Below, piece after piece: positions 40,705 through 60,821 of a stretch of 64,000 bases of DNA. The position numbers and the translations under genes were made by a program. Source of the DNA: a virus; IMG/VR virus record IMGVR_UViG_3300033156_000439, positions 1 to 64,000 of that record. The stretch is one strand, 5' to 3'. Below the pieces are notes generated by a model. The model saw only the letters and a list, made by a program, of their open reading frames with translations. It made no database searches and had not been told where the DNA came from. The first letter of the stretch is position 1. Each line of letters starts with the position of its first letter.

Positions 40705-41698
40705 TCGGGATACAGATCCTTGGAAAGTAGGTGCTCCGAGTGGTGAAGACGAGAGTGATGAGTCTTCCAGAACTTTTAAGACTACACACGCGTTAGAGGT
40801 GGGTGGACCATCTCAAGAAGACTGGGAATTGTATTTGACAAGTCCTCCAGCATTTGCAGCAGTTGAAGCCGTCACCTTTGCTGTTCTCTCTGCTGGTTTT
40901 GAAATTCATGGTGAGAGTGAGCAAATTAGGGAAAGATACACACGGCGCTTTGATAAAGTATTTCCAAAGCTTTATTCTGTTATGCGAGACGCTTTAGTAT
41001 TTGGCGACAGTTATTCGAGAATCCTCTTCGGGAGGGATAACCATTTTACTGATATTGAAGTTTTATTTCCGCTCAATGTAGTAACTCAGAATGGTAATTA
41101 CTTTGTACGAGAAGGCGGGAAACTTGTTCGCGTCAAAAATATTTGGCACTTTCAAGCTATGGCTCGTACAGATTCCTCATTTGGCATATCAATGATAGGT
41201 GTAGCAAGACAACCTCTTAAGTGGAAGAAGGAAATTGACGAGAGTGTCCACGAGGGTATTATCAGACACGGTTTTGCGAAATATCACATTCAGTGCCTTC
41301 CTGACAGACGAGGACTTTATCCCGATGAAAATAAGCTCAAAGAATTGGAGAGACAATTTAGAAAGATTCACGTTGGTCATGAGTTTGTTTCGACAGATAA
41401 GGTTAAAATTGATCCAATTGACACGTCTGGATTTCCAGCTCTCTTAGACTATCTGCAATATTACACGAGTCTCGCTGCAACCGGCTTAATGGTTCCGGCT
41501 GAAACTCTTGGACAGGGTATAGCAACTTCACAGTATGCAACTGCTAAAGTAAGGATGGAATTCTTCCTCAAGAATACTATTCCTTATTTCCAAAGAGTCC
41601 TTGAATGTTCCATTAATGATAATCTCATGGGAGAACGAGCTGAGGGAGCTATATTTAAATTAAATGAGCCTAAAGAAATTTCGTATAAGACAGGATGA
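40694..41698 (+). CDS. Portal protein
   Basis: Follows TerL; DALVFGDSY, HF..ARTDSSFGIS, L.VP...LG, A.VRM. Start codon uncertain. Confidence 0.82.
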   Translation: MYGDRDTDPWKVGAPSGEDESDESSRTFKTTHALEVGGPSQEDWELYLTSPPAFAAVEAVTFAVLSAGFEIHGESEQIRERYTRRFDKVFPKLYSVMRDALVFGDSYSRILFGRDNHFTDIEVLFPLNVVTQNGNYFVREGGKLVRVKNIWHFQAMARTDSSFGISMIGVARQPLKWKKEIDESVHEGIIRHGFAKYHIQCLPDRRGLYPDENKLKELERQFRKIHVGHEFVSTDKVKIDPIDTSGFPALLDYLQYYTSLAATGLMVPAETLGQGIATSQYATAKVRMEFFLKNTIPYFQRVLECSINDNLMGERAEGAIFKLNEPKEISYKTG

Positions 41699-42126
41699 TT
41701 CACGATACATTTACACCTTTAGGACGAGAGAAAAAGGATATATTTCACGATAGGATTTTAGTAGAGAGTGGGGACATGTTATATGATTCCACATCCCAAG
41801 GTGTTCCCATTTTCATACCCCCTAATGTTCTGAAAAATGCTCGTATTCCTAAAAAGTTACCATTTCAGATTTTTCACAATGGAAAGGAAGTTGGGGAAGT
41901 TAAAAATATTCGATGGGATGGTAGAGCGCTTAGAGGAGATATTCATGTTTACCCTCAACACAATGAAGAGGTAGTTAGAGAGCTTTTGAGGGGAAATCAT
42001 GGTTTGTCTATGCGCTTCTCTTCTATTGATGAGGATTATAAAACCTATACCTTAATTAAGGACTTGACGTTGGAGCATTTAGCTCTTGTTCCAGCTCCAG
42101 CGTCGCCGTCTGCAAGAATAGTGTAA
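41695..42126 (+). CDS. Prohead protease 1 (short, HK97/DUF2213-like)
   Basis: H..KEVGEV, GLS, HLALV..PA.P.ARI; located between portal and capsid gene. Confidence 0.75.
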   Translation: MIHDTFTPLGREKKDIFHDRILVESGDMLYDSTSQGVPIFIPPNVLKNARIPKKLPFQIFHNGKEVGEVKNIRWDGRALRGDIHVYPQHNEEVVRELLRGNHGLSMRFSSIDEDYKTYTLIKDLTLEHLALVPAPASPSARIV

Positions 42127-42156
42127 AATTCTACGAAAGAGATAAGGAGAAAAGAA

Positions 42157-43011
42157 ATGGGTGAATTAGCTGATAGGTTAAAAGAATACGTCGCTAAGGT
42201 GCAGACCCACGAACTCAGTGCGTCTGATGATATACGACGACTAACGCAGAAAGCCTATTATAACGCTGTCATGGCTGGAGCTAAACGAAGGGAATTCATG
42301 AGGAAGATATTACCTGTTGTCAAAACAAGTTCACATAGAGTGAGAGTATTCACATCTAATGCGAATGGATATGCTTCAAAAGGAGCTTATAAGGGTGAAC
42401 CTCCTATTTTTCATCCTAAATACACAAGCGTCGATGTGGTCACCGAAAAAGCTTGGACTTTACCTCTCGCTCCAAAAGAATTGGTTGAGGACGCAGAATT
42501 TGGCTTAATAGAGAATGAGGTTTCATTGGCTGGTATGCGATTGGAGAACACTTTAAACCAGGATGCAATTTCTACTTTAATAGATAGTGCTGATCATTCT
42601 GTAACATGTAGCATAGCATCTTCAGTAACGGCAATAAAAGACGCTTGTATTTATGTTGCAAACTCTCAATTTACTCCAACCCATTTGATTGCCAATCCAT
42701 ATTTCTTCTTTTCTGCTATGGCAACTGCACAGTCACCTTTAATGTATAATGAGGAACAGGGTGGTCCTCTTGATATGAAATTCCTTGCTGTGACTTCAAA
42801 TGGCAATAAAAATTGGAGATGGGAAAACGCAGGAGATGTCGGAGCAGTAGTGTTAGATGCTGAAATGGCAGCACTGATCCTCATGAAGGAGGATATAACA
42901 GTGAAAAAATATTCTGATCCTCTCAATGATTTACGTGGTGCAATAGTAGAAATGAAATACAAAGTTGTAGTAAGAAAACCCAAAGCTATTTGTATAATTA
43001 AACATGATTAG
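42157..43011 (+). CDS. HK97-fold capsid protein, copy 1
   Basis: ELVEDAEFGLIE...G.RLENTLN; C-terminal DITVKKYSDPLNDLR; paralog of 59835..60821. Confidence 0.8.
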   Translation: MGELADRLKEYVAKVQTHELSASDDIRRLTQKAYYNAVMAGAKRREFMRKILPVVKTSSHRVRVFTSNANGYASKGAYKGEPPIFHPKYTSVDVVTEKAWTLPLAPKELVEDAEFGLIENEVSLAGMRLENTLNQDAISTLIDSADHSVTCSIASSVTAIKDACIYVANSQFTPTHLIANPYFFFSAMATAQSPLMYNEEQGGPLDMKFLAVTSNGNKNWRWENAGDVGAVVLDAEMAALILMKEDITVKKYSDPLNDLRGAIVEMKYKVVVRKPKAICIIKHD

Positions 43012-43020
43012 GGGAGGAAA

Positions 43021-43698
43021 ATGCGAACAATTGTTCTATTAGTAGCTCTTTTAGTATTATGTCTCGTTCCGCTTTCTCAAGCAGCCCTTTCCAGTGTGGT
43101 CACGCTTAACGCTACGGACGCGTCAGGGATTAATCACGAGTTGTATTACATTGATTTCCGAGAAGACTTGGATGAAGGAGTGATTTATAACTCAGAGAGC
43201 ACTGCTGATCGTGGAACCGTTTTATTCAAACAAGAGGCTATGAGTGCTGGTAATGCCATCATGGTAGCCACAAATTATACCTATTTTGAAGGACGTGCTT
43301 TAATATCAGGTGCATCTTTAGTAGAGAATATGGGCGGAGTCAATGTTCACAGTGCCAATTACACATTAGGTGTGGTAGGTCTAAAAGGAACTTCCAGTTC
43401 CAAATTAGCTGTGGCTTCTGCTTCGAGTATCTCTCCCTACAATGTGCAGTATCAGTATAGCGTTTCGGGAGCAAATGGAGGCGCAGGGATTGGTGCTGCT
43501 GAAGTAAGTAACACAGGTAAGACCCATGCAAAAACAACAATAAGAGATGCAAAACAATTTGCATTGTCTGGTGAGTTGAGTTGGTCAGTACCAAAACCCG
43601 CTGGAGGAATAGAAGTACCAAATACAGACATATCACATTTGTGTGTATGGGCTCAGGAGAGTCCTGCATATCCTATCTTTCCAGGAATAGGAGCGTGA
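43021..43698 (+). CDS. Secreted protein with signal peptide
   Basis: MRTIVLLVALLVLCLVPLSQA-A leader; Ser/Gly/Ala-rich beta body. Confidence 0.75.
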   Translation: MRTIVLLVALLVLCLVPLSQAALSSVVTLNATDASGINHELYYIDFREDLDEGVIYNSESTADRGTVLFKQEAMSAGNAIMVATNYTYFEGRALISGASLVENMGGVNVHSANYTLGVVGLKGTSSSKLAVASASSISPYNVQYQYSVSGANGGAGIGAAEVSNTGKTHAKTTIRDAKQFALSGELSWSVPKPAGGIEVPNTDISHLCVWAQESPAYPIFPGIGA

Positions 43699-43699
43699 A

Positions 43700-44695
43700 A
43701 TGAAAACTCCTCTTTCCTCTATTTTTAATTTTGGAGCAATTCCCTCTCCTTGGGATAAAAGGGACGTTATATACGCGGCTCTTACTTCAAAAGAGAAGCC
43801 AGAGGTATTTAGTCTTAAGAAATACCAAGGACCGGTAGTAGATCAAGGTTCTCGACAGATATGCGTTCCTTGTGCGTTGTGTGCAATTGTAGAGTCAAAG
43901 CAATTTTACAATACTAATTTGTCCGAATGTTACATTTACAAGCGTCGTTCCCATAAGGGAGACGGTATGGTGCTGAGGAACGCTCTCAAAATTATGCAAA
44001 AGGAAGGCACTTGTCAAGAAATGTGCTTTCCGTTGTCTACGTGTCAAGAACGATGCAGTGAAAGTTCAATTAAAAAGAATGCTCTGTCTTATAGGATAGG
44101 AGAATATCACAGAGTATTCAATGACATTATTGGCACAATGTTTACACACAAATTACCAGTGTTTGCAGCCGTTCCCGTGTATGATAATTGGTCCTACGAC
44201 GCTTGCATACCCATGCCCTCTGGTGAATTCTTAGGCTTTCACGCTATTACGATTGTAGGATATGACCTCACAAAGAAATATTATGAATTCAAAAACTCTT
44301 GGGGAACAGAATGGGGAAACGGGGGATATGGGGAGTTGCCTCTCAATTATCCGATAGCCGAAGCGTGGATAGTTGAACCAAAACAGGGTAGTGACAATAA
44401 AGATTTAATTCCCGACGATGTAACTATAAAGAATGCGATATGTGGAATGTCCATTTTCGGACTTGGTATTGAGCTTGAGATTACTGTTCCTTGGGATTGT
44501 ACCGTAAAACCTAACTTCGGGATATTCCGGTTTCCACGAGCCCTCCATAGAGGGACGAATACGATCATGTTTCGAGTTCCATTCAAGAAGGGTTTACAAC
44601 CCTTGAGCTTGACCTTTAAACACAGAAACTCGTTAATTGAAATGTCTGCTACTCTTTCTAATACAATTCAATTGAGTGAGTGGGAAAGAATTTAA
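43700..44695 (+). CDS. Papain-like (C1A) cysteine peptidase
   Basis: DQG....C, GFHAITIVGY, KNSWG..WG.GGYG. Confidence 0.88.
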   Translation: MKTPLSSIFNFGAIPSPWDKRDVIYAALTSKEKPEVFSLKKYQGPVVDQGSRQICVPCALCAIVESKQFYNTNLSECYIYKRRSHKGDGMVLRNALKIMQKEGTCQEMCFPLSTCQERCSESSIKKNALSYRIGEYHRVFNDIIGTMFTHKLPVFAAVPVYDNWSYDACIPMPSGEFLGFHAITIVGYDLTKKYYEFKNSWGTEWGNGGYGELPLNYPIAEAWIVEPKQGSDNKDLIPDDVTIKNAICGMSIFGLGIELEITVPWDCTVKPNFGIFRFPRALHRGTNTIMFRVPFKKGLQPLSLTFKHRNSLIEMSATLSNTIQLSEWERI

Positions 44696-44701
44696 ATTAG
44701 A

Positions 44702-47116
44702 ATGAGCCTACGAGTAACATTTCTCGGAGTGAGTGCAGAAGCAAAGGGACACTCTTGCATATTGATTGAGTCCCCTAAAGCGAAAGTTCTTTTAGAACCC
44801 ACCCAGCGGGTTAAGGATGTTGATGCTGTTATAATTACGGATATAGACAAAGATGAATATAGCGAATGGAAATATTATGCAGACCAAGGAGTTCCAATAT
44901 ATTCAGTAGCAGCAATAAAGAGATGGGCAGAAGATGATGAGCTTCGTGAGCACATTCAAGTGATAAGCAACAAGTTCTCAATTAAGGGTCTCCACATGAA
45001 TTGGCTAAAAGCTAATGTCGCTCCTCACGAACCAGCAGGCGGAGTTAGAATCCCAAGTTACGATGTAGATATAGTGCCTGAACTTCCACCTTATATTCCT
45101 CAAGCTTTAATAAAGGCATTCGGACTGCCACCGTCTCACATCATTGTTGGTATTGGCTCTTATAAGAAGTTTGATCACAAAATATCATTTGAGGATTTTC
45201 TTCTTCAACTTGAGAAGACTCGGAGTGGCAAGGAAAAAGGTCTTTTATCTATTACTCTTACAAATTTCAGGAAAGATTTAAAGGAACATAAAAGTGAAGT
45301 CCTTAGAAGACTGAAAGAACGATGGGATATACCCGTCTTTTGGGCGGAGAAGGACATGATACTTGAGTTCTCTAAGAGTGGACAGGTTGAACGAATAAAT
45401 GGAACTTCTGGTGAATTAGAAAAGCTTTACCTTAAAGAATTCCTTTCCAAAGGAGTGGATTATGACATTAAACATGTTAAAACAAGGTGGAAAGAATGCA
45501 TTGCAGATTTGCGATATTTGGCTAACAACGCCGTGCCTCGCTTGAAAGCAGGAAAGAAGTGGGGTGAGTGGACTCTTGATGCGTGCTATAAATATTTTGC
45601 TGCTTTGATAGATGCTCTTCGCAGTGTGTATTTTACACTTGTTCCTCCCACTCAACCTGAGCTATACAAAATAGAGCATCCTGATAAAGATCCTAAGGAA
45701 GCACTTAAGACTTCTTTCTGGCAGACATATTTAAAGGCTAAGAAATACATGAAGTCCAAACCTCCCAAGGATGAGGAAGAATTAAAAGAGTGGAATAAGA
45801 AGCGAGCAAAAATAATAAGTGCGTCTGAAGAAACAAAGAACCTTAAAGTTGGATACCTTTCTAAGGCTAAACCATATTTACGATTCTTCCTTCCTACTAT
45901 TCATGAAGATATTGCGAGTGCTGGATGGGATGAAAAGAAGCTCCTTATTGATGTTAAAGCTGATGGTCTTAGAATTACTCTTTGGAAGTCAGGCGGTAAA
46001 GGGTACGTGTTTGTAGATCCAGAAGAACTTAAGCACAAGTCTCCATTAATAAACAAATATATTCCTCAGATAGTGAGAGAGATCGAAGAACACTTCCCTG
46101 ATAACACAGCTCTTGATGGGGAACTTTATGCAGCAAAAGGCAATGAGGCTTTACATAGAACTGTCATAAATGGAATTATAAATACTAAGCTTCCTCCCGA
46201 AAGATTCATACCTTATGCGTACGCATTTATATTTGATGTCCTTGTTTATAAAGGGAATGATGTTCGAGATAAATCTCTTGAAGATAGACTGAAACTGCTC
46301 CAAACTTTCAAGTCCACTTCACATATCAAAATAGAAAAAGTAAGCAAAGTTGCAATACCAAGCTATTCTGGGTACATAGTAGACGGGAATAACAAGAGTA
46401 TGATAGATAAAGCCATTCATTTGATAAAAACTTCAAAACACGGTCTCCATAAGGGATTGCAAGAGGGTGTTATGATTAAAACTTTAGATCATTTCTACGA
46501 AGTCCCTACGAATAAAGGAGCAGCTAAATGTAAGTTTTGGCACGAAGTTGACACTGTGGTGCTGGATAAGAAGTTGGTAAAAGGACAAACTGATGTATGG
46601 AATTATTATCTGGGCATTGAAATACCAGCCGGATATGCTAAGATGATGCTTGATGATACTCAGGCGTATAAACGGGTTCGATGTTTGTATAACGGTCATC
46701 TTTACAAAAAGAAAGAGTGTCAAGATTATTTAGACAGGCGAGGTGCTCGATTCTTTATGGAATACGGAAAGTCGGATAACACAAAAATTAAGTGTGATGT
46801 TGGAGACGTCCTTAGAGTGTCCTCTGAAGAAGTCCTTTATAATGCAAACGAAACTCATCCAGAATGCCCCTATTATACAGGATACATAAATAGGGCGATG
46901 GAGCCAGTGCCAGAAAGAAAGACTTCTGATAATTTAGTCGTGTTGCACCGTCTTGCTTTACTTGAACCTCAGCGGATACCCTTGGAAGTCTTAGCGAAAT
47001 GGAAAGAAAATATGCCTCCAGAGATAAAGAAGTATTGCGACTATATCAGGTCCTTATCTACTCCAAAACTAATTCAATTTTATAATGCACTAAAGAAGGT
47101 TCAAAATGAAGAGTGA
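44702..47116 (+). CDS. ATP-dependent DNA ligase with degenerate metallo-beta-lactamase-like N-terminal domain
   Basis: KADG motif I, LDGEL, FDVL, EGVMIK, KCK, OB domain. N-terminus VTFLG...SCILIE...AVIITDIDKDE lacks HxHxDH. Confidence 0.85.
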   Translation: MSLRVTFLGVSAEAKGHSCILIESPKAKVLLEPTQRVKDVDAVIITDIDKDEYSEWKYYADQGVPIYSVAAIKRWAEDDELREHIQVISNKFSIKGLHMNWLKANVAPHEPAGGVRIPSYDVDIVPELPPYIPQALIKAFGLPPSHIIVGIGSYKKFDHKISFEDFLLQLEKTRSGKEKGLLSITLTNFRKDLKEHKSEVLRRLKERWDIPVFWAEKDMILEFSKSGQVERINGTSGELEKLYLKEFLSKGVDYDIKHVKTRWKECIADLRYLANNAVPRLKAGKKWGEWTLDACYKYFAALIDALRSVYFTLVPPTQPELYKIEHPDKDPKEALKTSFWQTYLKAKKYMKSKPPKDEEELKEWNKKRAKIISASEETKNLKVGYLSKAKPYLRFFLPTIHEDIASAGWDEKKLLIDVKADGLRITLWKSGGKGYVFVDPEELKHKSPLINKYIPQIVREIEEHFPDNTALDGELYAAKGNEALHRTVINGIINTKLPPERFIPYAYAFIFDVLVYKGNDVRDKSLEDRLKLLQTFKSTSHIKIEKVSKVAIPSYSGYIVDGNNKSMIDKAIHLIKTSKHGLHKGLQEGVMIKTLDHFYEVPTNKGAAKCKFWHEVDTVVLDKKLVKGQTDVWNYYLGIEIPAGYAKMMLDDTQAYKRVRCLYNGHLYKKKECQDYLDRRGARFFMEYGKSDNTKIKCDVGDVLRVSSEEVLYNANETHPECPYYTGYINRAMEPVPERKTSDNLVVLHRLALLEPQRIPLEVLAKWKENMPPEIKKYCDYIRSLSTPKLIQFYNALKKVQNEE

Positions 47117-49151
47117 ACTCATAAACACTCAGAATGTAAACACTCTACTCGAATTGGTAGAGTCGGAACTCAATTATAGACATGCGAAGAGATTACACAT
47201 TCCAAACAGAGGAATATATCTACCCTCGCCACACGCTAAGCTTATTCACGACGGTCACAAGACAGTAATCCTCAAGAATAGGAAATTTAAGATAGCAGGT
47301 GTCCCATTCCTTTACTGTGACAATAAATATGCTTATGGTGTATTAGAACTCAAAGAACCAAAAGAAATTAAGACAGAAGGACAATTTAAGGCTCTCCAGA
47401 AATATCACAGAGTAACCAAGAAAGAGTTTGAAAATTGGAATTGGACCCTACCTCTTTACGCTTATTACATTAAAGAGGTTCACAATTTTAAGAAGCCTGT
47501 AAGGATTAACCTTCCTCAAGGTGTGCAAAACTTTATTAAGAATCCAGTTCAGTATTTAGAAGACAGTGAGTATCCATTTACTGGCAAGCATGATTTGTCT
47601 CTTTCTCTACAAGTAAACTGTCCCAATTGTGGGAGATGGATATACATTCCACACTCTCCAATTCCTTCTAATTGTCCTTACTGTGGTTATCAATTGAAAG
47701 AGCGAGAAGAAGAAAAATCACGAATGGTTCCTCTTCCAAAAGAAGAATACTCTCGAATAGTTAAGGATTATCCTCTCAAACCCTTACCTAAGAAATATTA
47801 CAAAGACCAGAGGGGAGGAGTAGCTTGGTGCTTTGCTTCTCCTCGAACTAAAGTCCTCACGGAAGGTGGCTGGAAACCTTGGAACAAAATTTATCCAGGT
47901 GAGAGAGTCTTAACACATAAGGGCAGGTTCATGCGAGTCACTCGAAAGGACGTGTTTGAAGGCATTTATGACTGGATTAAGGTTCACCTTCAGTTTGATA
48001 ACATAAAGGTCCTTAAGTACGATATTCGAGTGACTAAGAATCATCCCTTCCTCACGACCGAGGGTTGGAAAGAAACAAAAGACTTAAAGGTTGGTGACAA
48101 GATTGTTTCAAAAACACCCAAGCGTTGCCTCAACTGTCGTGCCCCGATTCCACTTTCATGGAACGCAAAAACAGACTTTATGTTTTGTAGTGATGAATGT
48201 GCACGAAACTATGAGTGGACAGAGGAAAGTTTGCACACTGAGTACATTGACAAACAAATTTATGATAATCCTCTTGCTGATGTTACGGTTACAGTTGTGA
48301 AAATCGAAAGGATTAGAATTCCAAAAGACTCCACTGTATGGACACAAACTCATGCTTGTTCTTTAGAAGTGGAGGAAGATCATTCGTACATGACTCCTTT
48401 GGGATTCTCTCACAACTCACAATGGCATATAAGAGGCATAAAACCAGAGGATAAGGAAGCGTATGATAAGGGTGAAATTTCCTTCGAGAAGATGATTTTG
48501 CATCATAGTCTTCATCAAGACCTGAGATGGAAATTAAACGGTATATCAGTCCTTCCTCAATGTACAATTACTGAAAGTGACATGAAGTCCTATGTGAGAG
48601 GAATGCTTGGACAACTTAACCCAGAACAGAAGGGTCCTGCCAACGTTCAAAAAGTCAAGGTTATTCCCAAAGTCGAGATTGCTAAACCCACAATGCCAAA
48701 GTCCAAAATGAAGGAATTCCTTATAGACGAGGAAGGAGCTAAGCTTATTAATAAGATGATAATTCATGAGACCTCTTACTGGATCAGTCCTGGAGAGGTT
48801 GGGAGTTTGCCATACACTTGGGCTTACATGGGAACTATATGGACGGGGAAGGTGGCAACGGGGGTTGAGAGAGGAGATTTTCACGAACTCTTCTTTTATC
48901 CAGATAAGGATTTACCTGAGCCAAATAAAAAATTCTTTGACGGACGGTTCATACTAAGAGCCTTTAGAGGTGAAGCAGCACGAGGGGGCAAAACATGGTG
49001 GTTGTGGAAATCCACGAAAAATCCTTATCCACAAAATCCTTGGTGTTATTGCGATCAGGGTGAACATGAGGTCCTTCCTCTTGACAAGATAAAACACTGG
49101 GGTCACGAGAACTATCCTGAATGGAAAACAAGAAAGGATGATTGTGAATAA
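47106..49151 (+). CDS. ASCH-like domain + Zn ribbon + intein-interrupted LigD 3'-phosphoesterase-like protein
   Basis: YL..PHA.LI..G.KT (ASCH-like); CPNC/CPYC; after splicing AWSQWH...HQDLRW...WTGKV..G...F.GRFILR, resembling the PE motif QxH...HxDxR. Confidence 0.65.
   Translation: MKSELINTQNVNTLLELVESELNYRHAKRLHIPNRGIYLPSPHAKLIHDGHKTVILKNRKFKIAGVPFLYCDNKYAYGVLELKEPKEIKTEGQFKALQKYHRVTKKEFENWNWTLPLYAYYIKEVHNFKKPVRINLPQGVQNFIKNPVQYLEDSEYPFTGKHDLSLSLQVNCPNCGRWIYIPHSPIPSNCPYCGYQLKEREEEKSRMVPLPKEEYSRIVKDYPLKPLPKKYYKDQRGGVAWCFASPRTKVLTEGGWKPWNKIYPGERVLTHKGRFMRVTRKDVFEGIYDWIKVHLQFDNIKVLKYDIRVTKNHPFLTTEGWKETKDLKVGDKIVSKTPKRCLNCRAPIPLSWNAKTDFMFCSDECARNYEWTEESLHTEYIDKQIYDNPLADVTVTVVKIERIRIPKDSTVWTQTHACSLEVEEDHSYMTPLGFSHNSQWHIRGIKPEDKEAYDKGEISFEKMILHHSLHQDLRWKLNGISVLPQCTITESDMKSYVRGMLGQLNPEQKGPANVQKVKVIPKVEIAKPTMPKSKMKEFLIDEEGAKLINKMIIHETSYWISPGEVGSLPYTWAYMGTIWTGKVATGVERGDFHELFFYPDKDLPEPNKKFFDGRFILRAFRGEAARGGKTWWLWKSTKNPYPQNPWCYCDQGEHEVLPLDKIKHWGHENYPEWKTRKDDCE
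47829..48416 (+). mobile_element. Mini-intein (196 aa)
   Basis: Starts CFASPRTKVLT, block B VTKNHPFL, ends LEVEEDHSY...SHN followed by Ser; no LAGLIDADG domain. Confidence 0.9.
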
Positions 49152-49182
49152 TTTTAGAATTTGACTTTTCTGTTTCGTAGAT

Positions 49183-53640: not shown

Positions 53641-53669
53641 TTCTAATCTCAAAGATAGGGTGAAAAAAT

Positions 53670-54179: not shown

Positions 54180-54184
54180 GCGAG

Positions 54185-54496
54185 ATGGTCTTAATACCAG
54201 ATCGCTGTTATAAACAACCGAGCGAGAAAGAGTACCTTCAGATAGATTTCTCTTCTCGACTTGGAGACAATGAAAGAATTTCAGCCATTAATGAATGTAA
54301 GTGTTATGACGAGGAGGGCAACGATGTGACAAGCGATATAATAGAAGATCCTGTTAAAGATGAAACGTCAGTGAAGTTTTGGTTTAAAGGAGGAGAATCT
54401 GGTAAACGTTACAATTTAACAGTAAAGATCCAAACGACAGAAGCCGCAACACTCGAGGAAGATTTAATATTAATAGTAGAGGAGGTAGGGTACTAA
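54185..54496 (+). CDS. Putative fibre-tail adaptor protein
   Basis: KQPSE....IDFS...W.KGG.SG.RY.L.V.I.T pattern. Confidence 0.6.
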   Translation: MVLIPDRCYKQPSEKEYLQIDFSSRLGDNERISAINECKCYDEEGNDVTSDIIEDPVKDETSVKFWFKGGESGKRYNLTVKIQTTEAATLEEDLILIVEEVGY

Positions 54497-54497
54497 A

Positions 54498-54722
54498 ATG
54501 AGCATAAAGATTGGAGAGTTTCTATCAACCTATACAGAAATTCACTCATTTGTCATGGGAATATACGCAGGACTTACAGAATGGCGTGGTATAGATTCAA
54601 ATGTCCTAAATAATCCCGACGTTAAGGAAGAACCCCATTACTGCTACGGTGGTTACGTCTTAGGCACTTTACTTAGATGGGCTATAATTCTTACCGTGGG
54701 CTATAAGTTCTTCTTAGGCTGA
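54498..54722 (+). CDS. Small membrane protein (holin-like candidate)
   Basis: Hydrophobic segments; located in the late operon. Confidence 0.5.
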   Translation: MSIKIGEFLSTYTEIHSFVMGIYAGLTEWRGIDSNVLNNPDVKEEPHYCYGGYVLGTLLRWAIILTVGYKFFLG

Positions 54723-54756
54723 TATTTCTATTGTTCCTTCTTTTAGGTGGTGCAAT

Positions 54757-55539
54757 ATGCAATTTTCAATAATAGTTGCGACAAACCGTGGACCTGAACT
54801 CTTAAAATATTTATTTGTCTCTACACACCCTGAGAGTGAGCTCATAGTAGTTGACTCTTACTATAATGAAAAAACAAAAGACTTCCTCTCTCGCCAAGAG
54901 GGATATAGACAGATAGTCTACGCTCCACCTGAACACTCGCCCTTTAGGTGGCATAGGGACTTTTCTCAGTCTCTTAATACAGCACTATGTCTCGCTGAGC
55001 ATGAATATATTGTACGTGCAGACGACTACATAGAATTCAAGGAGGACTTCTTTGACGTTGCTGAGATGGACATCAAGAGTTACCCAGAGAAGACTCTTAT
55101 AATAGGTCAAAAAGCGCAGGAGTATAACAAGGAAGAGAAGTTCATTGACTACATGTCACAAAAAGGAATAGGCGGAGATTTCAGATATGTGAACATTGAG
55201 AATCCAGCATTCACATTCTCTTTTGGAGTAGCGCCTCTTCAGTTATATCTCGACCTTAATGGTTATGATGAGAGGTACGATTCTGGTTGGGGTTTTGAAG
55301 ACAGAGACTTTCTTCATAGAGCACTAAAAGCTGGCTACGTTGCGATGCTCGATAAGCTACTTATGGGATATGGTCATGCTCATAAGCCAGCTTGGGAGAC
55401 AATTTCAATGCCTCATATAATTTATGAGGTAACAAAGACAGAAATAGAGAGTGGCAAAGTTTGGGCTTATAATCCTTATAAACTCAAGGATAGACGGGAG
55501 CAGAAACTGCAGGAGAAAGAGAAATGGATAGTAAGATAA
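54757..55539 (+). CDS. GT2 family glycosyltransferase
   Basis: FSIIVAT.R, ADD, NGYDERY..GWGFED.DF..R. Confidence 0.88.
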   Translation: MQFSIIVATNRGPELLKYLFVSTHPESELIVVDSYYNEKTKDFLSRQEGYRQIVYAPPEHSPFRWHRDFSQSLNTALCLAEHEYIVRADDYIEFKEDFFDVAEMDIKSYPEKTLIIGQKAQEYNKEEKFIDYMSQKGIGGDFRYVNIENPAFTFSFGVAPLQLYLDLNGYDERYDSGWGFEDRDFLHRALKAGYVAMLDKLLMGYGHAHKPAWETISMPHIIYEVTKTEIESGKVWAYNPYKLKDRREQKLQEKEKWIVR

Positions 55540-56462
55540 GCATGATTCAGATACAGACCACGAGTATTTGTTCCGGGAGGTGTATCATTTGTCCTTACAA
55601 AGACAGTTGGCTACGAAAGGCTCATGACTATATGAGTGATGAAGATTACGTTCACGTCTTAGAAGAGATTAAGTCCTATCTTGGTGATTACAAAGAAAAG
55701 CTTCCACTTTACTTGATGAATGATCCGTTTGCAGACAAGAAAATAATTGAGCGAATGGAGTTAGCTTATCAATATTTCCCTAAATGCAAATTAGAGTTGT
55801 CCACCAATGGTTTGCTTCTTACTGAGAAATTGTCAAAGCGAATAGTAGAAACTGTAATTCACTATAATGGCGGGGGTACATTTGAACTCTGGATTTCTTT
55901 TCACGGAGCAAGTAAGCAAACATGGGAGTTCCTTAATAATTTATCGGGTAAATTTGAAAGAGTCCTCAAGAACATCGTTACGTATCTCAAGATAAACAAT
56001 GGTCAGCTTAGAACAGTTATTAACTCAGCGGGAGGAGCGTCTCGTGATGGTTCTATGTTCTTTTATTCACAAAGTGCTTGGAAGCAATTCTTAAACTCTA
56101 TATTTCAAACTTATAACCTTCCATTGGAGAACGTTCATTTTCGATACTATACCTTTCATAACAGAGCTGGAAATGTGAGACTGTGTAATTGGGATGGAAC
56201 AGAGTATTATCGAGAAATAGGTCCCGAGTATCCTTTTGAGTGTTGGCGTTTTAGAAGTGGTATTCACATTCTTTACAATTTAGACGTGATAGCTTGCTGC
56301 ATGGATTGGAACAGAGAGGCAGTTTTTGGAAATCTCAAAACCCAAACTCTAAAGGAAATATGGGAGGGTGAAAAACGACGCATTTTTGTCGATATGGCGT
56401 CGGGTAGAAAACCTTCTCCTAAAGACTTTATATGCAAACGTTGTATGTCACCGGGTGGGTGA
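55524..56462 (+). CDS. Radical SAM/SPASM domain protein
   Basis: CSGRCIIC, STNG, NRAGN, CCMDW, GNL...TL.EIW, C..C. Confidence 0.9.
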   Translation: MDSKISMIQIQTTSICSGRCIICPYKDSWLRKAHDYMSDEDYVHVLEEIKSYLGDYKEKLPLYLMNDPFADKKIIERMELAYQYFPKCKLELSTNGLLLTEKLSKRIVETVIHYNGGGTFELWISFHGASKQTWEFLNNLSGKFERVLKNIVTYLKINNGQLRTVINSAGGASRDGSMFFYSQSAWKQFLNSIFQTYNLPLENVHFRYYTFHNRAGNVRLCNWDGTEYYREIGPEYPFECWRFRSGIHILYNLDVIACCMDWNREAVFGNLKTQTLKEIWEGEKRRIFVDMASGRKPSPKDFICKRCMSPGG

Positions 56463-56467
56463 GTAGT

Positions 56468-57370
56468 ATGGATAACGTAACAGCGATTGTGAAAACCTTT
56501 ATGCGTCCTGAAAAATTCGAGTTTTGTTTGAAAAGCTTAGTGTCTGCTGGACTTAAGAAAATCATAGTTTCTTTTGATGGTCCTGAAGATTATCTCGAAA
56601 GACACAGAAGGGTAGTGGGTAAATATCAGAGAAATGTAACCATTCGTTTCTTAGAGCTTCCTTTCAATGTTGGACTCGCAGCCGCAAGAAATAGAATGAT
56701 AGAAAGAGTAAACACTGATTACATTCTTATGATTGATGATGATAATTACGTTCCGCTTCAAGTCTTAGAGATGGTACATGGATTATCACAACTTCCTGAA
56801 GATGTAGGGGGAGTAGCTATGGGATGGCTGCCAGCTTTTAATCCTCTTCCACAGATGGATGCTTGGGACTTCGAGATAGTAAACAGGATACTCTTTAAGA
56901 CATGGCGAAGTGATAAGCAACGTGCAATTATTAATGGCAACGCTTATATGTTTCCTTTTGATTTTATTCCTAATCAAGTTCTCTTCAGACGAAAGCTCTT
57001 TAATGATGTGCAGTGGGATGAACATTATATCATAAGCAGGGAACATGAGGACTTTTATCTGACATGCAAGAAAGAAACAGATTGGAAATTTGGGATATGC
57101 ACATCTATTTACTCCGTACATGACCCAGGTGGAAGCAAAGAGTATATTCGAGAGTATCGTGCTGGAGTGGAGTGTGATAAGTCTGCCGAATATTTCCTCA
57201 AGAAGTGGAACCTGAAAGGTATAGCTCCCCAAAGATATAGTGATGATTATACGTCTTTGTTTTATGATGCTCCTTGGCAAGTAAGACGAAACCTCGATAA
57301 GAATAGATATATAAGATGGAAGTTGGAGACGAATCAGGCTTTACCTGATGACGTCTTCCAAACCCGTTAA
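56468..57370 (+). CDS. GT2 family glycosyltransferase
   Basis: VKTF.RP, GLAAARN, IDDD, EHEDFY. Confidence 0.88.
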   Translation: MDNVTAIVKTFMRPEKFEFCLKSLVSAGLKKIIVSFDGPEDYLERHRRVVGKYQRNVTIRFLELPFNVGLAAARNRMIERVNTDYILMIDDDNYVPLQVLEMVHGLSQLPEDVGGVAMGWLPAFNPLPQMDAWDFEIVNRILFKTWRSDKQRAIINGNAYMFPFDFIPNQVLFRRKLFNDVQWDEHYIISREHEDFYLTCKKETDWKFGICTSIYSVHDPGGSKEYIREYRAGVECDKSAEYFLKKWNLKGIAPQRYSDDYTSLFYDAPWQVRRNLDKNRYIRWKLETNQALPDDVFQTR

Positions 57371-57372: not shown

Positions 57373-58284
57373 ATGTTAGATAAGGAAGAAATAAAAAACT
57401 TAACAAAGAAAAGTATGGAGAAGGCTTATCTCCCAGTGCCTTCTCATGGGGGACTCAAGACTGCAAAGTTCACTCTTGAGGACGTCCAAAGATGTTTTAG
57501 GCAGCCCGCTCTTCTTCGAGACCTCGTATATTTGGTTGGAGGAGTAGCGGTTCACGGCAAGGGTAACGATGTGGACTTAGTAATACGTGGAGATGACTTA
57601 TCGGAACCTCAACGTGAAGCTCTTTTGTTCCGTCTTTATCGAGCATTTGGTGATTACTTCAATATACCTTACGATATGACACCTAAGCATTTACACGTAA
57701 CCTTCAACAACTATGGTCCTTTTACAGACCACGTTCTCTTATATCACTTAGCAATTGTTCCTTCTGAAGACCGAAGTGTCCACGAAATGGAAGCCATGAA
57801 GTCCGTATCCTCCAATGGTGAATGGATAGTTTATGGTTATGGTTCGATAGACGCAATTGACCTTGAAGGTGATGAAATAACCATTGATGCTCTCAAAGGC
57901 ATGTGGGAGGAAATGCAAAAGACCCCGAAGAAGTACTGGAATGTCATGAATGAACATGGTGGTGTACAAGTAGGAGAAATCCTCCCAGAGTGGAATGGGC
58001 TCAAAACTCACGTTGACGAAAAAGGGTTCTTTGTAATAGTGAAGCTCCGTAAGGATATAGACGCAGCACGAAGGATATGGGAAGCAATTCATTCTGACAA
58101 TGAAGCAGAACGTATCAAGAGTTTCTCAATTCACATTGAGTATCCTGGAGGTGTGCAAAATTGTACAGAAAAGGTCTGTGACAAAAACAGATGTTGGCGT
58201 AAGATAACCAAGGCAAGATTCCTTGAGTTGAGTTTCACAAGAAATCCTGCTAATCCGTTATGTATTTTTAAACCCGCGTTCTAA
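57373..58284 (+). CDS. Pol-beta-type nucleotidyltransferase fused to HK97-type prohead protease 2
   Basis: N-terminal VYLVGG...G.GNDVDLVI; C-terminal GYGS...D.EGD.I, EH...QVG, SFSI, ELS....PANP. Confidence 0.8.
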   Translation: MLDKEEIKNLTKKSMEKAYLPVPSHGGLKTAKFTLEDVQRCFRQPALLRDLVYLVGGVAVHGKGNDVDLVIRGDDLSEPQREALLFRLYRAFGDYFNIPYDMTPKHLHVTFNNYGPFTDHVLLYHLAIVPSEDRSVHEMEAMKSVSSNGEWIVYGYGSIDAIDLEGDEITIDALKGMWEEMQKTPKKYWNVMNEHGGVQVGEILPEWNGLKTHVDEKGFFVIVKLRKDIDAARRIWEAIHSDNEAERIKSFSIHIEYPGGVQNCTEKVCDKNRCWRKITKARFLELSFTRNPANPLCIFKPAF

Positions 58285-58314
58285 CTCTAACATTTAAAAT
58301 TAAAGGTGAGCGAG

Positions 58315-58560
58315 ATGCAAGAGCTTTATATAGGAGAGAAACCTTATGACAATTATTTAAGGGCACTTGGAGATTCCCAGAGTGTTAGCGTGTTGGCAAG
58401 AGGCAAAAATATCAAGAAGGCAATAGATGTAGCACTCATGGCTCAGAGGCTAAGTCAGTTTGAAATTAGGAATGTGGTTCTTTACGATGAGAAGATGACA
58501 AGTGATGATGGTGAACGTGAATATTATGTTAGTGCAATAAGGATAGACTTAAGTCGTTAA
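58315..58560 (+). CDS. albA: Alba-family DNA/RNA-binding protein
   Basis: YIG.KP..NY, V.ARG.NI.KAIDVA, VSAI.I.L. Confidence 0.88.
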   Translation: MQELYIGEKPYDNYLRALGDSQSVSVLARGKNIKKAIDVALMAQRLSQFEIRNVVLYDEKMTSDDGEREYYVSAIRIDLSR

Positions 58561-58589
58561 TTATATTATAGAATATAGAGGAATTGAAA

Positions 58590-59219
58590 ATGGCAACTCA
58601 AGAAGAGGAGTTTGAGGAATTCTTTAAAGAATTGGAAGAGTCGATGAAAGAGGATGCAGAGAACGAGGAAGAGAAGTCAGAGGAGGAACCGACTGAGGGT
58701 GAGAGTGAGGGTGAAAAAGCTCTTACAAAGGCAGATGTGATTAAGATAGTCAGGGACGAAATAAAGACATTTTGGAAAGGTGTCTTAAAGGGCAAATACC
58801 CACTTCCAGCAAAGTATCCCTACGCCAAGTATCCATACGCAAAGTATCCCTACGCCAAGTATCCTGCTCCAGCTTCAAAGAAGAGCTTAGACGAAGGAGA
58901 CTTCGTACCAATGTATCCCGCGTTTGTGGTAGTTCCACAGATGCAGATGCAGACAGATAGTACAAAGAGTAAGGATGTGAAAATTGATTCGACTGAGCAG
59001 AAGAATGCACAGACAGACAGCACAAAGGATGATGGAAAGGATGACATAATCGAAGAGCAGAAGTCGCAGATAGAAGAGCTCAAAAAGACAGTAGAGGATC
59101 TTCAGAAGAAACTCGAAGAGATTAGTGCTCAGCCAGCTCCTGAGAAAGAGGAGGATGAGGCCAAACCCGATTACGTCTCAGACGTCCTAATTGATGGTGA
59201 TACAATATCTCGACCTTAA
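58590..59219 (+). CDS. Acidic scaffolding-like protein with KYPYA repeats and coiled coil
   Basis: Located between protease and capsid genes; Glu-rich; C-terminal coiled coil. Confidence 0.65.
   Translation: MATQEEEFEEFFKELEESMKEDAENEEEKSEEEPTEGESEGEKALTKADVIKIVRDEIKTFWKGVLKGKYPLPAKYPYAKYPYAKYPYAKYPAPASKKSLDEGDFVPMYPAFVVVPQMQMQTDSTKSKDVKIDSTEQKNAQTDSTKDDGKDDIIEEQKSQIEELKKTVEDLQKKLEEISAQPAPEKEEDEAKPDYVSDVLIDGDTISRP
58812..58865 (+). repeat. 15-bp coding tandem repeat (KYPYA x3.5)
   Basis: aagtatccctacgcc aagtatccatacgca aagtatccctacgcc aagtatcct. Confidence 0.9.
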
Positions 59220-59235: not shown

Positions 59236-59365
59236 TCTCAAATTTTACACCATTTGCACATATTTGCGTCTGAGTGCAATTTTACCGTTAAGCATGATAA
59301 ATTATTCATGGACTTACTTTCATTCGCATATAGCGCATATCTGTGCATCTGGTAACATTTCTATT
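59236..59365. repeat. Dispersed imperfect palindromic repeat, copy C (most symmetric)
   Basis: Left arm accatttgcacatatttgcg; right arm cgcatatctgtgcatctggt. Confidence 0.75.
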
Positions 59366-59393
59366 TAAAAGTTTGAAATGAGGTAAATTAAAA

Positions 59394-59798
59394 ATGGCTG
59401 AAGTTGAAGATGTGGTTGCTGGTGCACCAGTCATAGTGACATTCTTGGCTGGTGCAGACATTGAGGCAGGACAGGTGGTGGGCTATGATGTGAGTGCTTC
59501 TCCTGATGATATGACCGTCTCTCCTGCATTACAGGATGGGTATGACACGATACCTGTTGGCGTCGCAGTAGATTCAGTGGCGGAGGATGACCCCGTGCCA
59601 GTGGCTATTCCGCCCTCGATAGTGAGGGTAAGAGCATCAAGTAATGTAACTGCTGGTCAGTTGGTACAGCTCAATGAGAGTGACGCAGGTCAGGTTGAAC
59701 CTTACAACTCGGGTGATAACACTTGGGCATTAGGTCAGGCATTAGAAGATATAACTGCAGACTCGACTGGTAGAGTGAGGTTACTCCTCACAAAATAA
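59394..59798 (+). CDS. Capsid decoration/cement protein (DUF2190-like)
   Basis: F.AGADI.AGQVV...GVA......D.V.V...V.AG..V...G.V...G.ALE; precedes the MCP. Confidence 0.75.
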   Translation: MAEVEDVVAGAPVIVTFLAGADIEAGQVVGYDVSASPDDMTVSPALQDGYDTIPVGVAVDSVAEDDPVPVAIPPSIVRVRASSNVTAGQLVQLNESDAGQVEPYNSGDNTWALGQALEDITADSTGRVRLLLTK

Positions 59799-59834
59799 AT
59801 ACCTCTATATTAAATTAAAAGAAGGTAAAGAAAA

Positions 59835-60821
59835 ATGGGTGATTTTGCAAACTTACTCCGGATTGTTAAGGCTGGTGATGATGCTAATCAGAAAAGCTAC
59901 TGGATGAAAAGACTCAGTAAGGGTACTCACGAATTGATGCAGGCTTACAACGTGACTGCTGAGCACCTTGTTCGAGAGGAATTATACAAAGAGGTGCTAC
60001 GTGGCGCTGAGGAAGTGCTCTGTATGAGAGAGGTTCTCCCAATTTACAGAATGAAGAGGAATGAACTCAGGTTCGTTCTCACAGATGCTCCAACTGGTAT
60101 GCTTCCACTTGTAGCACCTGGTTCAAGCCTTCCTGAGGGTCCAGACGTCAAGTTCAAGAGTGATGTTACATTTGTGGCTCAGAAATATGGTGAGAAAGTT
60201 GGCATCCCAGAGGAACTCATAGAGGAGGAAGAGTTCGATGTGATAGAGCTATTAGTTCACAACGAGGGTCGTCGGGCAGAGAACCGACTAAATGACGTAG
60301 CAATGAAGGCGCTATTAAACGCAAAGAGCAGTGTAGAGAGTACAGACAATGTTTCAATAATAGATAGGATAGTGGCAATGGTAAAGAAAATGCGAAAGAA
60401 CAAGTTTGAACCAGATACCATCGTAATGACTCCAGACGCGGAGGCAGAGATACTCAAGTATATGGTGGGTGAAACAAAGGTAGCAAATACAACTGGCGAG
60501 GCTGGTTATGGCAAAACTGGTGTTCCAGAGGTATTCAGGACCAAAGAGATAGGCAGACCAATAGTTGGTCTTAAGCCATACGTGTTGTCAAAGGAGGTAG
60601 CTGGTGATTCCCTGAGTTGGGGTGGTGATGATACCAATGCACACATCTGCATCCTTGATAGAAGGATGGCGGGTGGTATTGGTATGAGAAGCGATATAGC
60701 AATAAAGAGGTTCGAGGACCCACTTAACGACTTGAGAAACCTGAAGATTACTATGAGAATATGTGCAGAGACATTCTTTGCTAATGCGATTGAACTGGGT
60801 GACATAGCGAGCCTCTTGTAA
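59835..60821 (+). CDS. Major capsid protein (HK97 fold), copy 2
   Basis: KYG..V.I.EELIEEEEFDVIE, FEPDTIVM.P, DIAIKRFEDPLNDLR; canonical position after scaffold and cement genes. Confidence 0.88.
   Translation: MGDFANLLRIVKAGDDANQKSYWMKRLSKGTHELMQAYNVTAEHLVREELYKEVLRGAEEVLCMREVLPIYRMKRNELRFVLTDAPTGMLPLVAPGSSLPEGPDVKFKSDVTFVAQKYGEKVGIPEELIEEEEFDVIELLVHNEGRRAENRLNDVAMKALLNAKSSVESTDNVSIIDRIVAMVKKMRKNKFEPDTIVMTPDAEAEILKYMVGETKVANTTGEAGYGKTGVPEVFRTKEIGRPIVGLKPYVLSKEVAGDSLSWGGDDTNAHICILDRRMAGGIGMRSDIAIKRFEDPLNDLRNLKITMRICAETFFANAIELGDIASLL

Follow-up and report, generated by a model that had tools for sequence, protein, structure and literature searches.

Head-tailed viruses of the family Ekchuahviridae are defined by two pairs of capsid protein (MCP) and protease genes, and include in the genus Kukulkanvirus the Methanophagales viruses GBV301 (OP880252) and GBV302 (OP880253) (Laso-Perez et al. 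2023, Nat Microbiol, PMC9894754). According to the main text of that paper, the hosts are ANME-1 archaea, the genomes are 70–80 kb in length, and the hallmark of the family is a pair of divergent HK97-fold capsid genes, both of which come with a separate maturation protease, other morphogenetic genes being single-copy. The layout with two capsid genes is thus already known, having been published as the family hallmark in 2023. The same main text raises an analogy with the hexon and penton proteins of T4 and assigns no function there to the second capsid protein. In a preprint, two Thermococcales-associated genomes are placed in Ekchuahviridae alongside the ANME-1 ones.

The DNA analysed here (the window; 64,000 nucleotides, positions 1 to 64,000 of IMG/VR record IMGVR_UViG_3300033156_000439) is part of a complete virus record of 81,823 bp (81.8 kb), which comes to 81,709 bp once its 114-bp end repeat is removed. 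Two relatives were available in IMG/VR, whose genomes come to 71,795 and 80,551 bp after removal of one 127-bp terminal repeat, and the window genome was found to be syntenic with these relatives (G001 and G002) gene by gene and genome-wide. Nucleotide identity to the nearer relative was ~84–96% over most long aligned blocks, and G002 was 84–100% identical to the window genome in the head genes of the two modules. Like the published genomes, the window genome carries two divergent HK97-fold MCP genes with a protease beside each, and its record holds one portal match and one terminase match. Because the published description of the layout matches exactly, the window was placed in Ekchuahviridae, and it almost certainly belongs to a third genome of that family.

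All features below lie on the plus strand. The gene for a large terminase subunit of 541 aa (39079..40704; Pfam Terminase_6C at 1.1e-5 and Terminase_6N at 3e-3) is followed by module 1 (40.5–43.0 kb), which consists of the portal (40538..41698; Pfam Phage_portal at 8.7e-9, under the curated cut-off; PHROG portal at 2e-7), a 143-aa protease (protease1, 41695..42126) whose gene overlaps the portal stop at its start, and MCP1, a capsid protein of 284 aa (42157..43011). The likely start codon of the portal is the ATG at 40559, which follows a GGAGG motif and places the beginning of the gene inside the 3' end of the terminase gene. Module 2 (57.4–60.8 kb) consists of a 303-aa protease (protease2, 57373..58284), Alba-like, scaffold-like and cement proteins, and a 328-aa capsid protein (MCP2, 59835..60821), the two capsid genes being 17 kb apart. 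Putative connector and tail genes were observed downstream of MCP2. The entire 81.8-kb record yielded a single terminase match (PF17289) and a single portal match (PF04860), and no capsid homologue beyond MCP1 and MCP2 was found in its whole 81,823 bp. An earlier sequence-only reading of the window had described two modules of protease and HK97-type capsid gene served by one terminase and one portal; every gene was located at the position it gave, and the single terminase and portal held for the whole record.

That reading had also raised the prospect of a chimeric assembly joining two viruses. Two further complete genomes have this layout, and the order and spacing of both modules are the same in all three complete or near-complete records; therefore no chimera is indicated. 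Synteny is genome-wide, G+C is even across the region (0.38–0.42), and another run yielded a contig of 16.3 kb that spans 41695 to 57737, bridging module 1 into protease2. A chimera was likewise excluded by the authors of PMC9894754 for GBV301 and GBV302, and for the window such an artefact is considered extremely improbable.

By sequence comparison, MCP1 and MCP2 are paralogous, as had been proposed from three pairs of shared motifs, all of which were found in the sequences. BLASTP aligned the two proteins at 26% identity over ~280 residues (E 5e-14), and alignment of their family profiles by hhalign gave a probability of 99.65% (E 4.9e-25, 252 columns). Both begin with the start motif MG-E/D-L/F-A..L: M1, G2, E3, L4, A5 and L8 are invariant in the MCP1 family, and M1, G2 and L7 in the MCP2 family, where D3 and F4 are nearly so. 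This N-terminal motif is missing from the MCP of HRTV-29. MCP2 matched Pfam PF25209 just under the cut-off (1.3e-5) and the PHROG major head protein. For the window MCP1 itself no Pfam match was obtained; within its family, 4/17 members match PF25209 and 4/17 match PF05065. The MCP1 family profile matched the HFTV1 MCP (PDB 8qpq) at E 4.9e-21, with MCP1 residues 26–201 aligned on HFTV1 109–285, and the MCP2 family profile matched it at 1.4e-10; comparison with the HRTV-29 MCP gave 1.3e-17 for MCP1 vs 4.9e-11 for MCP2. By tblastn, MCP1 had matches only in Halorubrum tailed viruses. The AF2 model of MCP1 is poor (pLDDT 55), yet it returned 92 Foldseek matches in the PDB at E<=1e-3; those listed are HK97-fold capsid proteins and encapsulins, with HFTV1 in the top row. 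The profile match and the Foldseek matches together show that MCP1 has the HK97 fold, which disposes of the earlier concern that this copy might not adopt it. Both copies were taken to be functional because open frames are intact in every one of the MCP1 (11) and MCP2 (12) sequences examined, omega is low (for MCP1, 0.06–0.15 in the N part, residues 1–97, and 0.00–0.09 in the C part, residues 249–284, where computable) and Shine-Dalgarno-like motifs are present upstream of both genes.

Protease2 matched Pfam Peptidase_S78 over the cut-off (1.7e-4, residues ~200–295), with an N-terminal extension of ~190 aa before this domain, and is the only PF04586 match in the genome; its identity is 88% in G001 and 100% in G002. 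Protease1, a minimal prohead protease of the assemblin/S78 kind, gave no Pfam or PHROG match of its own (Pfam S78 none even at E 10) and belongs to a small family (8 matches among 1.84 billion representatives), two of whose eight members match Pfam S78 (PF04586; best 6.5e-5). Its AF2 model (pLDDT 78.7) was aligned by VIA-align with the proteases of VZV (Z 10.5, rmsd 2.8, 107 aligned) and HCMV (Z 7.7) and with T4 gp21 (Z 8.6, rmsd 4.2, 122 aligned), the next unrelated fold (MCE domains) reaching Z <= 5.7, and herpesvirus proteases filled the top rows of its Foldseek search. By the assemblin fold of this model, protease1 is assigned as a prohead protease. In the family alignment H61 is invariant (8/8) and S105 is aligned in 7/8 members; from motif resemblance these residues may be the catalytic pair, and a weak HMM alignment to the VZV protease (E 0.49) covers the His. 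Identity of protease1 among relatives is 80–99%. Each capsid gene is thus accompanied by a protease, recognised by Pfam S78 for protease2 and by fold and family members for protease1. No sequence similarity was detectable between the two proteases (BLASTP; hhalign E 0.31).

Between protease2 and MCP2, an Alba-like protein of 84 aa (58306..58560; Pfam Alba at 6.1e-5, just under the cut-off) keeps its gene position in 12/13 related loci searched, the distant locus L045 included. It is followed by the scaffold-like protein (58584..59219, the true start likely being the ATG at 58590) and a 134-aa cement or capsid-stabilising protein (59394..59798; Pfam Phage_cement_2, PF09956, at 7.6e-8), which matched the HRTV-29 'capsid stabilizing protein' by BLASTP at E 9e-4. 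The scaffold-like protein has no Pfam match; it has an acidic N-terminus, KYPYA repeats and a coiled coil, and a scaffold role is suggested by its position between the protease and the cement and MCP genes, its composition and its conserved ends. A second scaffold gene was not seen, so that there is one candidate for two capsid proteins. MCP2 evolves slowly, its identity being 100% in G002 and 87% in G001 as compared to 84% and 57% for MCP1. MCP2 is proposed to be the main shell protein because of these identities and because of the order of scaffold, cement, MCP2 and downstream genes. MCP1 is proposed to depend on other head proteins because it lacks the N-terminal assembly domain (~100 aa, delta-like), no second scaffold was seen and its N-terminal motif resembles that of MCP2.

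With a protease and a capsid protein in each module, the head might in principle be built from either one, for example for different hosts or conditions, with the same portal and terminase. The portal lies directly upstream of module 1 and head/tail-type genes lie directly after module 2, and the preprint's placement of both Thermococcales-associated and ANME-1 genomes in the family makes several host groups conceivable. However, the scaffold and cement genes occur only in module 2, MCP1 is without an assembly domain, and the two capsid genes share a strand and apparently belong to a single string of late genes in which no switch is obvious. That the copies have long been retained together while evolving at very different rates is also easier to reconcile with complementary than with redundant roles, and two alternative capsids are judged quite unlikely.

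The modules are separated by a 14.3-kb block (43021..57370), which was annotated by Pfam. It encodes a secreted 225-aa protein, a C1 peptidase, an 804-aa protein with an ATP-dependent ligase domain, a 681-aa HINT/intein-bearing protein, a 1485-aa DUF2341 protein, a 169-aa protein, a 110-aa Gp77 fibre-adaptor-like protein, two glycosyltransferases and a radical-SAM/SPASM enzyme; between genomes, few proteins have diverged as much as the 1485-aa and 110-aa ones. The sequence-only reading had suggested an encapsulin-like compartment made from MCP1, with the genes downstream of it supplying cargo. More broadly, MCP1 and protease1 could form a small DNA-free shell of their own, encapsulin-like or a second particle type, possibly enclosing viral enzymes. 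MCP1 (284 aa) is near the size of the encapsulin Foldseek targets (260–278 residues, E 1e-5 to 1e-4), protease1 lies beside it with no detectable similarity to protease2, and encapsulins assemble without a scaffold. The best matches of MCP1 are nevertheless virus capsid proteins, HFTV1 coming first both by sequence (4.9e-21) and in Foldseek. Two of the four genes downstream of MCP1, the first encoding the secreted protein and the second the C1 peptidase, are missing in G001, whose ligase gene directly adjoins MCP1, and no C-terminal tail shared among the four downstream proteins was seen by eye; the cargo proposal gains no support from either observation. To our knowledge no prohead protease is needed in encapsulin systems, and an encapsulin-like shell would leave a hypervariable outer surface such as that of MCP1 without an explanation. 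A separate DNA-free shell is therefore considered unlikely.

The hypervariable cassette of MCP1 covers residues ~141–225 (42577..42831) and is, by fold topology, the A-domain. Its nucleotide identity to G002 is 60% vs 90–96% in the flanks, and its amino-acid identity to the window is 32–84% (11 loci); the flanks in close relatives are 91–98% (N part) and 92–100% (C part) identical. Mean pairwise difference is 0.40–0.56 in the cassette vs about 0.1 elsewhere, dS is 1.2–2.2 in most pairs vs 0.3–0.5 elsewhere, and omega is 0.12–0.48 vs 0.06–0.15 in the N part. At least 9 allele types were distinguished in an alignment of 11 sequences, and diverged replacements of equal length were found at the cassette in contigs of other runs. 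Alignment of MCP2 relatives revealed no hypervariable segment in that protein. The cassette may be new, as the main text of PMC9894754, supplements aside, makes no mention of it. A diversity-generating retroelement target was also considered and was rejected on the lack of a template repeat in the genome: a blastn-short search of 42557–42835 against the whole genome returned chance matches of <=15 nt only.

Old, exchanged cassette alleles with omega raised over that of the N part form the pattern of an antagonistic interface. This pattern, together with the number of allele types, would suit a capsid-like protein acting outside the shell, for instance as a decoy or a shield where host immunity senses capsid proteins. 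Some bacterial defence systems are known to be triggered by capsid proteins. We know of no capsid-sensing system in these hosts, however; the shell-contact N-arm, E-loop and P-domain of MCP1 are as conserved as MCP2, and a highly conserved, dedicated prohead protease lies beside it, all of which make a role outside the shell distinctly improbable.

In the preferred reading, given a probability of about 0.45, the shell is built by MCP2, MCP1 serves as a minor, specialised capsomer, and both are in one virion. Among the three options of the sequence-only reading, a hetero-capsid comparable to that with T4 gp24 appears the most plausible; its two HK97 paralogs, with a protease beside each, were borne out, whereas their co-assembly stays a proposal. 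MCP2 would form the bulk of the shell as hexamers, and MCP1 would co-assemble as the minor capsomer, most simply at eleven pentameric vertices, like gp24 beside gp23 in T4. The rim-forming N-arm, E-loop and P-domain of MCP1 would be held constant to fit MCP2 neighbours, and the outward-facing A-domain would be a swappable hypervariable cassette. The variability of this domain suggests a variable counterpart that it binds or is recognised by, such as the host surface, a head fibre that itself varies or a sensor of the host. The role of protease1 would be to process MCP1 specifically or to act as its chaperone. Any homo-oligomer of MCP1, at a vertex or elsewhere, could accommodate a hypervariable A-domain, and the ribosome-binding motif of MCP1, as good as that of MCP2, gives no hint of lower MCP1 abundance. 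Against co-assembly, each capsid protein has a protease of its own, the two being without detectable mutual similarity, a pattern that separate assembly lines for the two proteins could produce as well.

Family 1 encapsulins share with MCP1 the HK97 fold and a similar size and are among its Foldseek matches. They differ in that MCP1 matches viral capsid proteins better and its gene follows those of a portal and a prohead protease, and neither a conserved cargo gene nor a targeting tail was seen near it. The likeness to gp23 and gp24 of T4 lies in the presence of two diverged HK97-fold paralogs with one portal and one terminase in one tailed virus. In T4 the gp23 and gp24 genes are adjacent and a single protease (gp21) processes both; in contrast, the window genome has two protease genes, one beside each MCP, and its capsid genes are 17 kb apart. 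Among solved or named proteins, both copies have their closest relatives in the Haloferuviridae (HFTV1 gp19, PDB 8qpq; HRTV-29 gp41), MCP1 being the nearer of the two, and the order of cement followed by MCP is the same there as in module 2. The single MCP of that family is described as forming both pentamers and hexamers and has an N-terminal part of ~100 residues that is missing in both window capsid proteins; the HRTV-29 MCP has an N-terminal extension of ~125 residues, and the mature HFTV1 capsid protein is described as lacking residues 1–100. In HFTV1, turrets proposed to bind host glycans are reported on the hexamer centres, with the pentamers as unoccupied capsomers. The unoccupied pentamers count against a vertex role for MCP1, and the turrets are a precedent for docking at capsomer centres.

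The record that holds the window is 81,823 bp long, carries direct terminal repeats and is rated complete, the window being its first 64 kb. The repeat measures 114 bp here, leaving 81,709 bp without it, and 127 bp in each of two related IMG/VR genomes with terminal repeats, the more distant G001 (71.9 kb) and the nearer G002 (80.6 kb). These end repeats may be overlaps from circularly permuted or circular assemblies and not true virion ends. Beyond about 34.6 kb, almost all long reading frames lie on the + strand. The large terminase (39079-40704, +) and the portal (40538-41698, +) were named by Pfam and PHROGs searches, and each had a single match in the whole genome, as the sequence-only reading had counted them. 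The portal frame (40538-40704) overlaps the terminase 3' end by ~146 nt if translation starts at ATG 40559, upstream of which a GGAGG motif is present. Two loci from relatives have unusual terminase matches: at L047 (2110-2949) the match is restricted to residues 1-280, and at L049 (10001-12259) residues 1-411 are spread across 2259 nt (about 753 codons), pointing to an inserted element, possibly an intein, that interrupts the terminase gene in some relatives.

The portal is followed on the + strand by protease1 (143 aa, 41695-42126), identified by its fold and family members, and by the capsid protein MCP1 (284 aa, 42157-43011), identified by family profile and fold. After 14.3 kb of other genes, mostly on the + strand, the second module comprises, all on the + strand, protease2 (303 aa, 57373-58284; Pfam S78, residues 200-295), an Alba-like protein (84 aa), a scaffold-like acidic coiled-coil protein (211 aa, 58584-59219), a cement protein (134 aa, PF09956) and the capsid protein MCP2 (328 aa, 59835-60821; PF25209), with small proteins of connector and tail-gene type 3' of MCP2. 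No third capsid homologue was found in the whole record. The scaffold-like protein (homologues at L010-L014 and L038-L045) contains tandem KYPYA-type repeats, the copy number of which varies between relatives (about 2 to 4). Most relatives start this protein at MATQEEEF, which suggests that its true start in the window is ATG 58590 and not TTG 58584.

MCP1 and MCP2 are homologous, both by BLASTP (26% identity, E 5e-14) and by comparison of their family profiles (hhalign probability 99.65%, E 4.9e-25, 252 columns). Searches of Pfam and PHROGs returned no match for the protease1 or MCP1 proteins themselves; among 17 MCP1 family members, four matched PF25209 and four matched PF05065. The MCP1 family profile matched 8qpq, the solved capsid protein from Haloferax tailed virus 1 (HFTV1), at E 4.9e-21. 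The AF2 model of MCP1 is poor (pLDDT 55, residues 1-116 below 50) and was used for secondary-structure order and fold searching, not for surface mapping; it matched 92 PDB chains at E<=1e-3, the matches listed being HK97-fold capsid proteins and encapsulins. MCP1 thus has the HK97 fold, the failure of which had been named beforehand as grounds for abandoning the idea of two HK97 capsid paralogs, and that idea is borne out by profile and structure searches. An N-terminal motif, MG-E/D-L/F-A..L, recurs in the MCP1 and MCP2 families, with almost no variation inside either one.

Protease1 belongs to a very small family, with 3 matches in a word-indexed search and 8 among 1.84 billion representatives. 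Pfam S78 is matched by 2/8 members, H61 is invariant in the family alignment and S105 is aligned in 7/8. The AF2 model of protease1 (pLDDT 78.7) aligned best to VZV protease (Z 10.5), T4 gp21 (Z 8.6) and HCMV protease (Z 7.7), with unrelated folds at Z <= 5.7, and Foldseek agreed with the protease ranking. From this fold and family evidence, together with the Pfam S78 match of protease2, a prohead protease adjoins each of the two capsid genes, as the sequence-only reading had proposed. No sequence similarity between the two proteases was detectable by pairwise comparison or hhalign (E 0.31). Protease2 carries an N-terminal extension of ~190 residues ahead of its S78 domain, the Pfam match being confined to residues 200-295.

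A chimeric assembly joining two viruses had been set beforehand as an outcome that would overturn the two-module layout. G001 and G002 show gene-by-gene synteny with the window genome, and both carry the two capsid copies in the same order, about 15.6 to 17.7 kb apart. A Logan contig of 16,296 nt from another run was placed on 41695-57737, with diverged gaps, and G+C is even over the region (0.38-0.42). With the layout found in two further genomes, spanned by this contig and even in composition, an assembly chimera is extremely improbable. Three shorter records (15.8-20.7 kb) hold the MCP1 type only; these are fragments that possibly end before module 2. Most G002 proteins are 92-100% identical to those of the window genome, and at the nucleotide level the majority of blocks share 84-96% identity.

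More distant relatives were also sought. For an MCP1-like protein (P0022, 38% identity) and an MCP2-like protein (P0041, 59%), which have their sources in common, the longest contig on record is in each case 130,914 bp; the two may or may not be one contig, and the two-capsid layout may reach larger, more distant viruses. A 127-kb contig encodes a further MCP2-like protein. Of the profiles for distant groups, A3 found nothing among metagenome contigs and viral contigs, and A6 found nothing among viral contigs and one 4.1-kb metagenome contig with module 2 only. The MCP1 profile A1 returned two fragments from genome contigs, both from close relatives, and megablast of window positions 41000-44000 against the phage collection gave no match.

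The two-capsid-gene layout is already known and published as a hallmark of the Ekchuahviridae, of which the window genome is a third complete member, close to the 80.6-kb relative. According to Laso-Perez et al. (bioRxiv 2022; Nat Microbiol 2023, PMC9894754), the hosts are ANME-1 archaea, which are uncultured methane oxidisers; assembly artefact was excluded for the layout, which no other known tailed virus of haloarchaea or ANME-1 shares; and the division of labour between the two capsid proteins was left open. A preprint (PMC12934983) places two Thermococcales-associated genomes in the family as well.

The two capsid genes differ in how they vary. MCP2 is 87% identical in G001 and 100% in G002; MCP1 is 57% and 84% identical, with its neighbours at 82%/98% (protease1), 75%/97% (portal) and 85%/94% (ligase). 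The excess divergence of MCP1 is limited to residues ~141-225, hereafter the cassette: nucleotide identity to the nearer genome is 60% at 42600-42749 and 90-96% in the flanks. Across 11 related loci, cassette identity to the window was 32-84% (46-59% in eight, 84% in two), with flanks at 91-98% (N part) and 92-100% (C part) in close relatives and, for the distant genome, 64% and 79%. Pairwise difference averaged 0.40-0.56 within the cassette of 11 MCP1 sequences and about 0.1 elsewhere; among 12 MCP2 sequences, no 20-residue window exceeded 0.14, and the peak fell on residues 1-20. Alignment of the 11 cassettes distinguished at least nine allele types, and contigs of other runs carry diverged replacements of the same length at 42581-42784 and about 42600-42832. 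No mention of a hypervariable A-domain in MCP1 was found in the main text of PMC9894754.

In most comparisons dS was 1.2-2.2 in the cassette and 0.3-0.5 in the N part of MCP1, with omega at 0.12-0.48 and 0.06-0.15, respectively; positive selection (omega > 1) was not seen in the cassette. Given these omega values and the saturated dS in most pairs, the cassettes resemble old alleles that recombination has moved, and not the outcome of fresh positive selection. A DGR was considered as the source of the cassette and rejected, since no template repeat was found. In the MCP1 model, a long spine helix (115-143) is followed by strand-helix-strand-helix, and by this order of elements the cassette is the predicted A-domain, the part of an HK97-fold shell protein that makes up the outward-facing centre of a capsomer.

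The region between the modules is not, by gene content, a stable cargo set. The observation of two paralogs with two proteases is confirmed and the sequence-only interpretation is partly supported; its suggestion of cargo genes downstream of MCP1 gains nothing. The 71.9-kb relative has neither the 225-aa secreted protein nor the C1 peptidase that directly follow MCP1 in the window. These two genes occupy 43021-44695, the first with a signal-peptide-like N-terminus and the second of the papain family (4.7e-14); the 3' part of the peptidase (about 44400-44700) is another local peak of divergence. A 681-aa protein (47106-49151), conserved at 74-95% in relatives, has weak matches in mid-protein to PT-HINT (1.2e-5) and Intein_splicing (1.2e-4), both under cut-off. 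Further on, a 1485-aa protein (49183-53640) has a pair of DUF2341 domains (2.2e-44); 0.5 kb 3' of its gene, a 110-aa protein (54164-54496) matches PF23148 (2.8e-12), the family of the podophage GP4 fibre-tail adaptor gp77. When the three genomes are compared, these two rank with the most diverged genes (the former 58-64% identical across 13-38% of its length, the latter 69%), and together they may form a variable fibre, encoded between the head modules.

Three Halorubrum virus records were found by tblastn for MCP1 and none for MCP2. Values against HFTV1 were 4.9e-21 for MCP1 and 1.4e-10 for MCP2, and against HRTV-29 1.3e-17 and 4.9e-11; by these sequence comparisons MCP1 is the nearer to haloferuvirus capsid proteins. 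Laso-Perez et al. regard one copy as likely ancestral and the other as transferred from haloferuviruses, and because of this nearness MCP1 is probably the copy regarded as transferred. MCP1 and MCP2 scored 172.8 against each other, and 124.6 and 81.9 against HRTV-29, but profile-profile and profile-single-sequence scores are not strictly comparable, and a comparison of three groups with no outgroup decides nothing on ancestry. Both copies align to the HFTV1 capsid protein from residue 109, and the mature HFTV1 protein lacks residues 1-100. Unlike the HRTV-29 capsid protein, which has an N-terminal extension of ~125 residues, MCP1 and MCP2 lack such an extension; the shared N-terminal motif is not found in HRTV-29. 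That the copies are closer to each other than to HRTV-29, share this motif and have lost the same N-terminal domain would argue against recent transfer. A terminase-based scan reached no ahpuchvirus, the sister family with a single capsid protein.

The copy behind the portal is thus a conserved frame round a hypervariable A-domain, and the other copy is nearly frozen. This asymmetry in rate yields a clear, testable prediction, with MCP2 as the bulk shell and MCP1 as a minor exposed element, and the cassette is a modest clue that makes the open two-capsid question easier to test. In the scheme we favour, at a rough probability of 0.45, the shell would be built by MCP2 with the scaffold, cement and protease2, and MCP1 would enter the procapsid alongside it as a minor specialised capsomer, the simplest case being pentameric vertices like those of T4, with an exposed A-domain that is free to diversify. 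MCP1 has no assembly domain of its own, and its contact-forming parts are as conserved as those of MCP2; beside this conservation, a role for MCP1 outside the shell, for instance as a decoy for capsid sensing to which a hypervariable surface might be suited, seems quite unlikely. A separate shell of MCP1 alone would have protease1 at hand and encapsulins among its structural likenesses; the best matches of MCP1 are virus capsid proteins, and we consider such a shell unlikely. Alternative capsids on the same portal and terminase, for which a protease beside each capsid gene might speak, are improbable, as MCP1 lacks an assembly domain and the one scaffold-like gene lies in module 2. The remaining probability is not assigned to any scheme.

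A bolder form of the favoured scheme, with MCP1 as a minor capsomer, probably at the vertices, and its A-domain as a recombining cassette hypervariable at the level of the population, would have the head surface diversified as tail fibres are elsewhere. Such a head might serve to adhere head-first to the host envelope, to anchor the giant DUF2341 protein, which is just as variable, via the Gp77-like adaptor, or to escape a host sensor of capsid proteins; we regard this form as doubtful. In HFTV1, the nearest solved relative, turrets dock at capsomer centres, with host glycans as their proposed ligands, and the pentamers are empty. What speaks most against a simple T4-like scheme is the presence of two unrelated-looking proteases. 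As PMC9894754 notes, coexisting divergent capsid proteins are unusual in tailed viruses, T4 being the documented case, and its hexameric and pentameric capsomers are cited there as the comparison; if the favoured scheme is true, these genomes would provide an independent case of capsomer specialisation, in archaeal viruses.
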